Assembly (NCBI GenBank): GCA_964016885.1
Contig: OZ024744.1
Coordinates: 46,810,001 to 46,874,000, forward strand
Direction: 5' to 3'
Origin: Eledone cirrhosa
Taxonomy: Eukaryota
DNA length: 64,000 bases
Below the pieces are notes generated by a model. That model searched no databases, was not told the origin of the DNA, and saw only the letters and a list, made by a program, of their open reading frames with translations. Positions within the stretch are counted from its first letter, which is position 1. Every line of letters starts with the position of its first letter. The translations under genes were made by a program, and so were the position numbers. Shown piece after piece: positions 8,913 to 47,600 of this stretch.

Positions 8913-9597
8913 GTTTATATGTGTCTATATGGGTGTGTATGTGTGTTTACACGTTGTATGGTGTGTATATGTGTACATAAGGGTTTGGTATATGTACGTT
9001 TGGTGAACATATGTGTATTTACCTGTAGGTATGTGTGAGTGTGCGTTCTATACGCATTTATGCGTGTATATTTATATATGTATATATAATTATATGTATA
9101 CACACACACAAACATATATTTATATGTGTATTTGGTGTATACGTTCGTACGTGTGCGGGTATATGTGTCGCACCGGTTTACGTCCGTGTGCATGTGTTTA
9201 TGTGTATGTGCATGTATATGCAAGCATAGTGTGTTTTCGCATATGCACGTGTATAAATGTGTGTATGCATATATTTAATTATTATTACTTTTATATTTTT
9301 AATAACCTCTGTCATTTTCGTTCAACTAATTTATTTACATTATTCTGAACTCCGAAGCCGAGAATCATTCAGTTTCCTAAATAGTATATTAGTCTACGAC
9401 TCCATTTATACCATAAACGTGGTTTTGTCTTTACGTATAATTGTTGTCACCGCTCCACATAACAACGTATTATCTTCGCTTTTTTCCGTTCATTGCCAGG
9501 GAACGTCTTCACGAATCAAAGTATCGTCTTCTTGTTTTCCTTCGGTTGCAACGTTTTTCAAAATATTTACTTCTTCGGTCACAGATTGATTTTTTTT

Positions 9598-9648
9598 AGT
9601 TTCAGAAGATCCTGTTAAGGGTGAAAGAAGCGATTCCTTGTTTAAACT
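9598..9648 (+). ncRNA. Hammerhead-like fold with CAGAAGA (U4A) core; related copies 22503-22553(-), 35570-35620(+), 47128-47178(-)
   Basis: Family consensus AGTTT-CAGAAGA-t-CCC..GGG-t-GAAA-GCAGCGA t TCGTTGC-TT-AAACT. Stems I-III can form in the consensus; this copy is more decayed. Confidence 0.5.
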
Positions 9649-44600: not shown

Positions 44601-47600
44601 CTTGGGGCTTCTGAAACTAACTTATTGTGTTAACAGATGTTGGATGAGAATCTTTACCAATAAAAATATGGAGAAGCAAGGCGATATATCTTTCTTTTTG
44701 TTTGTATTGGAATTAATTTTTCCGTGTTTTCTTTTCTATTGCTTGTAAATACAACCCACGTGTTGTAAGAGTGGTTGAGTTACTGCAGTGTTAATGCTTC
44801 AGTGTGTGGAAGCCAGGTTAACAGAGCATATGTACGGAACCATGTAAATGCCTTACCACAGATCTTTCTTTGAATCACGAAGCATCATGTTGAAGAAGAT
44901 TGCAAATAAATTTGGGGCACGGACACAGCCTTGTTTCACATCATTCTTGATGAAGAATTAATCAGAGAGAGACCATCATTGTGCTTTACCTCTCCCTGCT
45001 GACCTGTGTGGAGTTGTTGTAGCATGGTCAGGAATGTTAGCTGACCTCCGAGTCTGCTGAGGATCTTCCACAGTCCATCCCTACTAACTGTATCAAATGC
45101 TTTCGTCAGGTCAATGAAGGCAGCGTACAAGGCCATATCTTTCTCTCTAGTCCCTATCAGACACAATGTATGACGCACGTTTGTCGTACTTAAAATAAAG
45201 AAATTATGTACAAGGGCAGATAAGCTGTCCTACGGGATATCTCGATTACCTCCCTTGTCTTACACATTTAAAACATAAAAATATTTTCGCAAACTTTGTG
45301 AATAAAAATGAAAATTTATTGAAAGACGTATTTATACATACTGGCATAGAAATATAGGTAAATGATATAAATATAGCTAACTAATTAGAAATATAGGTAA
45401 TTAATTATATATATATATAGGTATGGTTGTGACAGGGGGTGGGGCTGCGTTATTGAAATATACGCTGACTACAGCACATTTCTTCCAGAGAGAGAAAGTG
45501 AGAGAGAGGAAATAAGAAAGAGATATAGAGGAAGTATCGACCCCAGTATTGGACTGGTACTCTTTTTCTCGACCTCGAAATGATGAAAGGCAAAGTTGAC
45601 CTCGGCGGGATTTGAACTCAGAGAGAAGAGAGCTGGAATGAATACCTTAAAATATTCTATCTGACGTTCTAACGACTCTGACAATTCGCCGGCTACACAC
45701 ATACACACATACACATATATATATGATGGCTCCCCCCTCGTTATCGAGTATGGCCATTGCACGATAAAAAAACATAATAATAACAATAATAATAATATTA
45801 ACAACAATAATAATAACGATGACAACAACAATAATAATATACATATATATATACACACACGCGCACATACATAACACATCTACACACACACACGTGTGAT
45901 AGCAATTAACAGTGCTGCTATCGAATGTGGCTTTTTAGCCCAGCCAATGTCTTGCACAGAGTTGGCAACCAAAACATCCACTGGGAATAGCCGGCTGTGG
46001 TTGGAGTTCATGTACTTTTGCATGTCGTTTGAGCCCTCCTGCTGATTTACATTCTCTACCACATGCTTGGCAAGCATGATGAGTAGCATCTTCAACAGCA
46101 GCTTGGTCTTACTTTACGACTGCGAAGTTGACTTTCGAGTCCAGCTTTGCTTAGGCAGAGTCTCGCACAGACGCTGCATGTCAGCGTCATAGGAGGACCT
46201 TCGCCGCCTGGAAATGCAATAGCAATGCCCTTCCTCTCATCCCTTTTTACTTTCTCGTATGCGATTCGAGATGCCTCAAAGGCAACTTTCCCCTCATATA
46301 CAGTCTTTCTCCATTTATTACAATCAGCAGCAACATTTTCCCATGTATCAGCAGAGATGTTAACGTCTTTCAAAGAAGCTTTCAAGGAATCCTTATACCT
46401 CTTTTTTTGGTTTATACTAACAGTGTATCCCGGCGTTGCACGGGTAAGAACATTGGTAATAGAACCTCCAATGAGTATCGTTTATTTGTGAGTGCCTGTT
46501 AAATATACCGACAGAGGAAACTTGTTTTATTTGGAGAAAATTAAGAAGTTGAAAGTACAGTTTAACTACCTATGTGCATTGTACATAGAAATATTGTTGA
46601 GCCCCTTCTTTTCATACTCCTCTGTTTTGGCCTTTTGGCGTAAATGTGAAAGAAAAAGTCACAGGTTAAGTTGGCAGAAGGTTCCAGTGTCATAGCAGTA
46701 AGGCTTAGGCTACTTACCTCAAAAGTTCATTCGCACTCTTTCCACTAAGTTACTCTTTCTCTCTATCCCTCTCGGTGCAGTCCCTTGCGAATTTCTCACG
46801 TAGGCTTGGTGTAGATTTACACCCGATCCATCTACCCGATGCACATGTCCGCTTTGTACAGCTTTTGGAGGAAGGAGTGACCAGCAGTACGTTGTTCGGT
46901 ATTATTACGAAAAGGTGTAGCAGAGAATCTCGCGTGAACTAACAGCTCGGGAGGAAACTGCTTACCTCGAAGATTCATTCGCCATCGTTATTGTCAACGC
47001 TCCGTTTAGTTGGTATTTGTTGGTTTACAGTTAGATGAATGGCGCACAAAGGGTTAATGTTTATTGGCAAGAAGTGCAACAGGGCTGGCTTGCCTCGCTT
47101 ATATTATATATTAAAATATCAGATTAAAGTTTAAGCAAGGAATCGCTGCTTTCACCCTTAATGGGATCTTCTGAAACTAAAAAAATCAATCTGTGAACGC
47201 AGACATAAATATTTTGATAAACGTCACTACCGAAGGAAAGCAGGAAGACGTTCACTGGCAATGAACAGAAAATAGCGAACATAATACGTCATCAATGTTC
47301 GTGAGAATGTCGTTATGCAGACAGGCAGGCATGCAGACAGATATTATAAGAGCGCGACGGAGATGGATAACCAGCGCCTAACACCTATTTAACAACAGAA
47401 AATTGAAAAATAAAAGCTGCAGTTAATATCTTTAAACCGCAAGGAATATATAAATGCCAAGTTTGAAGTCAATCGGAGTAGAATGTGGATTTGTATAGCC
47501 TTAGCAAAAATGAGGACACACACAGACAACTACAGTTTTATATATATAGATGATAAATATTGGTGATAGGAAGGGCATCCAACTATCGAAAACTTGCTAA

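Follow-up and report, generated by a model that had tools for sequence, protein, structure and literature searches.

A 38-kb palindrome with a 41-bp spacer in a zinc-finger-rich region of Eledone cirrhosa, and its probable origin as an old fold-back duplication

The palindrome, its junctions and its zinc-finger copies

The stretch of DNA analysed here (the window: 64,000 nucleotides of Eledone cirrhosa, GenBank assembly GCA_964016885.1, contig OZ024744.1, positions 46,810,001 to 46,874,000 of the forward strand) contains a palindrome of about 38 kb, whose two arms turn back on each other over a spacer of only 41 bp and each carry a copy of a C2H2 zinc-finger (ZNF) gene. The palindrome had been described in an earlier note made from the letters alone, and its short spacer and colinear arms are borne out by a self-BLAST of the window, which gives one colinear chain of minus-strand matches running from 9465/47289 to the centre, with E = 0.0 for the long blocks. 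The main features are the following:

9465-28733 (19,269 bp; high-identity part 9580..28733), plus strand: left arm, probably the newly copied one
28775-47289 (18,515 bp), minus strand: right arm, probably the template (original) arm
28734..28990, minus strand: RTE-like fragment of a long interspersed nuclear element (LINE), broken at the centre, with its mirror at 28517-28733
28734-28774 (41 bp), minus strand: spacer, single-copy in the window, continuing the LINE fragment of the right arm
9465..9579, no strand assigned: outer junction zone of the left arm, an older copy of a dispersed repeat, with about 85% identity to 47195-47289
29961..31990, plus strand: right C2H2-ZNF pseudogene, with an acceptor-like site at 29960, an ATG at 30336, a 128-aa frame up to a frameshift in finger 4, and decayed fingers after it
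25666..27535, minus strand: left C2H2-ZNF pseudogene, carrying the shared frameshift and the later stops; it has two fingers less than the right copy, and in addition a stop and a frameshift of its own

The structure had been thought to be built around a ZNF gene. A ZNF copy is indeed present in both arms, each directed away from the centre, but the centre itself is the LINE fragment, and the ZNF start codons (27160 and 30336) lie about 1.6 kb to either side. The fragment, which we take to be of the RTE class, is matched weakly by three of the 129 stored reverse transcriptase (RT)-family proteins, with matches that extend past the break, and no Pfam family was recognised in it. Its minus-strand reading frame spans the right-arm part and the whole spacer, and ends two codons into the left arm. 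Sequencing data over 28676-30415 consist of two contig sets of one sample (X1, X2) and two sets of restriction-site-associated DNA (RAD) reads (X9, X10); their source, organism A, has a best word share with the window of 0.24 and may be another species than that of the window. The four sets come from 11 runs listed, none of which is of RNA; among the others, X3 has a word share of 0.21 and X4-X8 have 0.05-0.12. Depth over this region is dominated by repeats. Reads of the LINE family cover the spacer at a depth of about 9,000, and reads of other copies extend as LINE sequence ahead of 28736-28748 (1,382, 2,136 and 3,280 in X9; 1,378, 2,240 and 3,667 in X10). Since both the frame and the family reads continue through the spacer, the spacer is native to the right arm, and it is the left arm that was probably copied. 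No second match to the fragment was found elsewhere in the 64-kb window, and the remainder of the LINE would have been lost at the break. Adapter sequence at the centre was rejected, the spacer being LINE.

The innermost 39 bp of both arms are identical, and substitutions follow at 40, 65, 100, 102 and 126 bp from the centre. The left arm was considered as the carrier of most of these near-centre changes and was rejected as such, as the family letter stands on the left at three of the five nearest differences. At the junction itself, comparison by eye with the family letters, from which the pre-break letters of the window's own copy may differ, gives 1 bp of exact inverted homology; a second base pair needs a third-position change, and four further inverted matches lie one base out of register; 2-8 bp of inverted microhomology would be expected at a fold-back of this kind. 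Folding of the junction strand gives a short stem only, as expected (z -1.8; 13 of 200 shuffles as good).

The outer end of the palindrome is a second readable junction. Although the chain of matches starts at 9465, as had been noted earlier, the high-identity arm ends at about 9580: outside this point 14 of 93 columns differ and there is a 21-bp gap, versus 42 of 1121 columns inside (Fisher p 3.6e-5 for the change point 9579, an optimistic value since the point was fitted). The repeat of the outer zone is also found at 22474-22652 (87%) and 35483-35649 (80%), all copies being of similar, older divergence. Beyond the arms, the flanks (1-9464 and 47290-64000, i.e. 9.4 and 16.7 kb) have in common only short repeats, the longest of 452 bp and none above 89% identity. 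The simplest reading is that copying proceeded as far as the repeat at the template's outer limit and then switched to another, older member of that repeat. A homology-mediated second junction is almost always present in recovered yeast fold-back inversions (PMC7467729). A single fold-back transposon was rejected as the source of the whole structure, because there is no terminal structure around the 38 kb and the outer ends are without matching target sites.

The two ZNF copies have an identical 2-bp frameshift in finger 4, which limits the frame to 128 residues, and later stops and frameshifts are also common to both; the array on the right has two additional 84-bp fingers. Over 335 codons, pN is 0.040 and pS 0.044 (pN/pS 0.9), and in the first 128 codons 14 of the 16 changes are nonsynonymous. 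Thus the gene was already dead or truncated at the time of the duplication, its copies having since diverged neutrally. As the ZNF was frameshifted before it was copied and the differences are neutral, the event added no working gene. Intact ZNF arrays are found at 48406 and 57102 (open frames of 198 and 370 codons), which belong to another subfamily, about 67% alike; this second subfamily is carried by an older direct duplication, from which its arrays derive (47775-50751 and 54556-60265, 77-93% identity). The route for C2H2-ZNF expansion suggested in the earlier note is therefore not supported in this instance: the locus is a way of copying ZNF DNA, not shown as a source of working ZNF genes. 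Coleoid C2H2 genes are described as forming large clusters (PMC9068888). Of the 20 candidates from a protein search with the ZNF leader, nine were generic finger proteins, and no orthologue from a cephalopod was found.

As regards the region upstream of the ZNF, 29370-30415 has many near-identical copies in organism A, where a contig of depth 794 differs at a single letter out of 83, and 29778-30009 belongs to a repeat of very high copy number; summed depth is only a rough guide here. Over most of 30010-30415 the summed contig depth in X1 is 500-2,700, versus 17 for one low-depth piece, depth not being copy number.

Divergence of the arms and origin of the palindrome

Substitutions between the arms amount to 535 in 16,899 aligned columns (3.2%) without masking, and to 351 in 14,177 columns (2.5%, or 97.5% identity) after masking of tandem repeats and near-gap columns. 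The cleaned set comprises 187 transitions and 164 transversions, and a CpG transition is found at 30 of 303 CpG sites. The spectrum looks like mutation and not like long-read error; a noisy-read consensus was rejected because substitutions (351) outnumber the short indels found away from tandem repeats (25, none longer than 5 bp). Furthermore, two minisatellites differ in length (13534-14393 on the left versus 42867-43290 on the right, and 15271-16176 versus 41555-41983), four insertions of 188-636 bp are found in one arm only, and three one-arm gaps of 184-237 bp are read as deletions. The differences in substitutions, minisatellites, finger number and whole insertions that had been seen by eye are thus all confirmed. 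Identity along the arm has no gradient toward the centre (Spearman 0.16, p 0.41); a run of 348 identical columns, the longest (P 0.05), bridges masked gaps, so that there is no sign of homogenisation of the arms.

The favoured explanation, to which a probability of about 0.68 is given, is a real, old interstitial fold-back duplication with deletion. A break would have fallen inside the RTE-like LINE fragment, at the position observed, upstream of an already frameshifted ZNF; the resected 3' end may then have folded back over a 41-nt loop and primed on very short, imperfect homology, and the folded end would have copied about 19 kb of its own chromatid, with local loss of the rest of the LINE and of the sequence beyond it. 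The new end would have been captured at the older dispersed-repeat copy, about 85% identical, where the junction is observed and its mechanism is suggested by the yeast cases; such a capture would close the chromosome, with no need for further bridge-breakage cycles. Finally, a 41-bp loop could hinder cruciform extrusion and fork stalling, in which case the structure may have drifted to persistence and neutral decay.

A long-surviving fold-back had already been proposed. The fold-back origin is supported by the broken LINE and by the second junction in an older repeat; the long survival is likely, and rests on the arm divergence together with indirect evidence from reads. At 2.4e-9 per generation, a rate taken from another octopod (PMC7656900), a divergence of 2.5% corresponds to roughly 5 million generations, if the arms began identical. 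This divergence exceeds the heterozygosities of 0.08%, 0.95%, 1.1% and about 1.2% quoted for four cephalopods (PMC7656900, PMC9068888).

The same arrangement could come from an assembly artefact, in which two haplotypes were misjoined head to head via a chimeric fold-back read, and in which a large structural difference ends the homology at 9465/47289. Fold-back artefacts make up about 0.55-0.6% of Oxford Nanopore (ONT) genomic reads and are joined within 200 bp (PMC12870357), and the window has in common with them a turn-back within that distance and no adapter. The region is repeat-rich, with the many near-identical copies of the ZNF upstream part in organism A, heterozygosity reaches up to about 3% in other molluscs (PMC7656900), and over-dispersed divergence and the lack of a junction-spanning read among the joints and pieces listed, both described below, would also suit an artefact. 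However, the arms of a chimeric fold-back read come from one molecule and are expected to be identical, whereas those of the window show substitutions from 40 bp outward as well as entire insertions, and terminate in a separate outer junction; an artefact here would thus need a chimeric join, two haplotypes and a large structural difference, all within 19 kb. Moreover, haplotypes are expected to be homologous past the arms, and the 9.4-kb and 16.7-kb flanks are not, the homology ending instead in a junction-like older repeat. Fold-backs are also virtually absent from HiFi data (PMC12870357), which may not be the platform of this assembly. On balance, an artefact is considered unlikely.

The reads of organism A bear on this explanation through one further feature:

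28729..28734, no strand assigned: GCATGC site lying across the junction and lacking in the LINE family; RAD molecules begin at 28730

In both RAD runs molecules start at this site made by the junction (18 of depth 49 in one, nine of depth 45 in the other), which counts against an artefact. Starts are also found at 29802, the only other GCATGC of the stretch, and at none of six other CATG sites among the table rows listed (seven further rows exist), in which fragments end on AATT with 29888 as the sole exception. A contig of low depth in X1 departs from the right arm at three of 104 letters, a stretch in which the arms themselves differ at 10. At 39 variant places compared, being those listed (75 further exist) with the spacer place dropped, the letter of the reads agrees with the left arm at 13; at 25 the two arms are identical and the reads depart from both, and at one a third letter is found. 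As the letters depart in this way from the window, organism A may be a relative. Altogether, the read evidence raises the odds of a real palindrome moderately, without settling the matter.

A third possibility is that the palindrome is real but younger, already diverged alleles or paralogous segmental-duplication copies having been joined head to head at the LINE, by inter-homologue U-type exchange or end joining, so that the arms were born 2-3% different and would have been stable at once. This would explain survival without a phase of perfect arm identity, and would agree with the over-dispersed divergence and with the abundance of close ZNF-unit paralogues in organism A. On the other hand, it requires breaks in two molecules, 41 bp from each other, where one fold-back explains the loop, and its outer junction would still need a second event; the presence of the junction site in both RAD libraries counts, in addition, against a very recent private event. 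This origin is accordingly given a still lower probability than the artefact.

Several observations weigh against an old fold-back duplication. Divergence along the arm is over-dispersed (index 2.1 versus 1.0, and 1.5 after merging of clusters, P 0.04), which fits equally well alleles of mixed ancestry, old patchy conversion or clustered mutation. None of the 13 joints listed changes strand and none of the 16 contig pieces listed spans the junction (2,455 further pieces exist), the listed pieces of X1 and X2 being of about 130 bp or less. A third start site, at 28886 on the minus strand, has 103 and 142 RAD molecules, and the window has CTGCAG there and no GCATGC, so that starts can stem from other copies of the family; with thousands of copies present, the probability that molecules start at 28730 by chance is, by a rough estimate, about 0.1. 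Furthermore, there are right-arm-specific sites at which all or nearly all reads carry the left or family letter, as at 29412 (66 of 66 and 90 of 90 reads), where the reads apparently stem from a paralogue that skips 39 bp, and at 29133 (17 of 17 and 16 of 16 first-mate-plus reads). Finally, the 41-bp spacer is far below the spacers of human germline inverted duplications, which span 766-70,466 bp (PMC3907307).

Stability, known systems and possible transcription

The instability of long, nearly spacerless palindromes had been stressed for this locus, which overstates the case for a spacer of this size: in eukaryotic cells, fork stalling is reported at inverted Alus 12 bp apart and not at those 52 bp apart (PMC7999016, a review). 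As the 41-bp spacer lies between these two values, and as there is a precedent in C. elegans, described below, the survival of the palindrome is unusual and not paradoxical.

A close likeness is to the fold-back inversions of yeast (PMC7467729), with which the window has in common an inverted copy, here probably hairpin-primed as well, a short unduplicated loop (median 35.5 nt in one class of yeast strains), a presumed loss of sequence past the break and a secondary junction lying in dispersed homology. Unlike them, the palindrome is unselected, lies in an animal germ line, is apparently millions of generations old and has a second junction about 85% identical. The human germline inverted duplications with deletion (PMC3907307) resemble it in the unduplicated spacer, and probably also in the tiny inverted microhomology and the adjacent loss; they are new, terminal and pathogenic, with a median spacer of 3,428 bp, whereas the window's palindrome is interstitial and aged, with only 1 bp of exact microhomology certain.

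The palindromes of mammalian X and Y chromosomes (PMC8981503, 10.1101/800185, PMC13688818) also have inverted arms of more than 10 kb around a spacer, and a comparison with them had been drawn in the earlier note. The likeness goes no further: those palindromes are kept at more than 99% identity via gene conversion and hold expressed gene families, whereas here identity is 97.5%, there is no gradient toward the centre and no trend of homogenisation, and the duplicated gene is a pseudogene. Among invertebrates, the inverted gene pairs of Caenorhabditis (PMC1803023) consist of head-to-head paralogues with a 126-bp spacer and a long persistence; their arms of about 2.2 kb are 99.7% identical and their genes intact, in contrast to the 19-kb, diverging arms and the non-functional ZNF of the window. 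No palindrome or fold-back from a ZNF cluster of an octopus or other cephalopod was found in the literature searched, the supplements, a possible place for such repeats, being outside the search.

The mechanism is already known, and what is new is an aged, short-loop, interstitial example from an invertebrate with both junctions readable. If real, the locus preserves in readable form the trace of a repair pathway known otherwise from yeast mutants under selection, from patients and from tumours; a palindrome with 19-kb arms and a 41-bp loop would have remained for millions of generations in the germ line of an animal, with no sign of conversion, no selection on its gene and no loss of its centre, and would provide a natural data point on the shortest tolerated spacer. 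A general mechanism cannot be established from a single locus. Should the palindrome be an artefact, it represents a type of misjoin that diverged arms fail to flag.

As regards transcription, a segment resembling a first exon is found near the outer end of each arm:

9680..10060, plus strand: first-exon-like segment pointing inward, of putative function, with 46% GC and an observed/expected CpG ratio of 0.85 versus 0.52 for the window; mirror at 46716-47095

The AG|GTAAGT donors at 10059 (plus strand) and 46717 (minus strand), which end these non-repeat segments, are the sole ones on their strands in 9.4-48.5 kb, and the acceptor-like sites ahead of the ZNF exons lie at 29960 (plus strand) and 27536 (minus strand). 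Hence donor and ZNF are opposed within one arm and in sense across the centre. It might be imagined from this arrangement that the fold-back rewired transcription into two mirror units crossing the centre, whose pre-mRNAs, with kilobase hairpins, could be a source of A-to-I-edited or small RNAs against the ZNF subfamily, which has many close copies, and that short-loop palindromes may be tolerated, being a recurrent repair product in cephalopod ZNF clusters, together with the fold-back structures present in each of the arm-specific (TA)n insertions; this proposal is very doubtful. A promoter reading of 9465-9676 was rejected, the region being a repeat.

Other elements in arms and flanks

The DNA in which the palindrome is set is AT-rich, with (TA)n, retroelements and C2H2 arrays at high density. 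Apart from the features given above, the arms contain one further retroelement in both copies and four insertions specific to one arm:

22925..25500, minus strand: Penelope-like retroelement, in both arms (mirror at about 32100-34740), with a weak RVT_1 match below the curated cut-off and a GIY-YIG-like C-terminal motif seen by eye
17912..18547, no strand assigned: left-only insertion of 636 bp in (TA)n, with a 220-bp hairpin at its start
21193..21380, no strand assigned: left-only insertion of 188 bp in (TA)n, with a 108-bp hairpin (96%) at its end
34748..35253, no strand assigned: right-only insertion of 506 bp in (TA)n, with 60-bp inverted repeats
35671..36268, no strand assigned: right-only insertion of 598 bp in (TA)n, with 154-bp inverted repeats (98.7%) that are akin to the terminal part of the Penelope-like element

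The retroelement at 22925..25500 is presumably Penelope-like, by comparison with a published description (PMC8557442); its right copy has several lesions and its left copy is without 217 bp. The short elements at 28275-28510, 29034-29282 and 47360-47550, which have a subterminal palindrome of the CCCGG type and a simple-repeat tail, appear to resemble Helentron-associated non-autonomous elements, and differences between the arms cluster in them.

Inverted repeats within (TA)n are found in all four arm-specific insertions, an arrangement that has been described for Penelope-like elements (PMC8557442). Two older elements, at 6961-8443 and 18622-19119, also lie in (TA)n, the inverted repeats of the six elements ranging from 60 to 424 bp, and an additional hairpin, largely (TA)-rich, is found at 3023-3231.

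In the left flank, the RT fragments at 346-1578 and 1855-2725 form a tandem pair, 92% identical over 880 bp, and behind the RT there is a weak PHD-finger match which is common to many relatives from marine invertebrates. A search with 346-1548 gave Octopus bimaculoides as the only cephalopod among the 120 matches listed of 2,638 (64% over 70% of the query). Finally, two related 48-bp minisatellites, about 69% alike and in opposite orientation, are found one in each flank, at 3807-4170 and 53576-53919.

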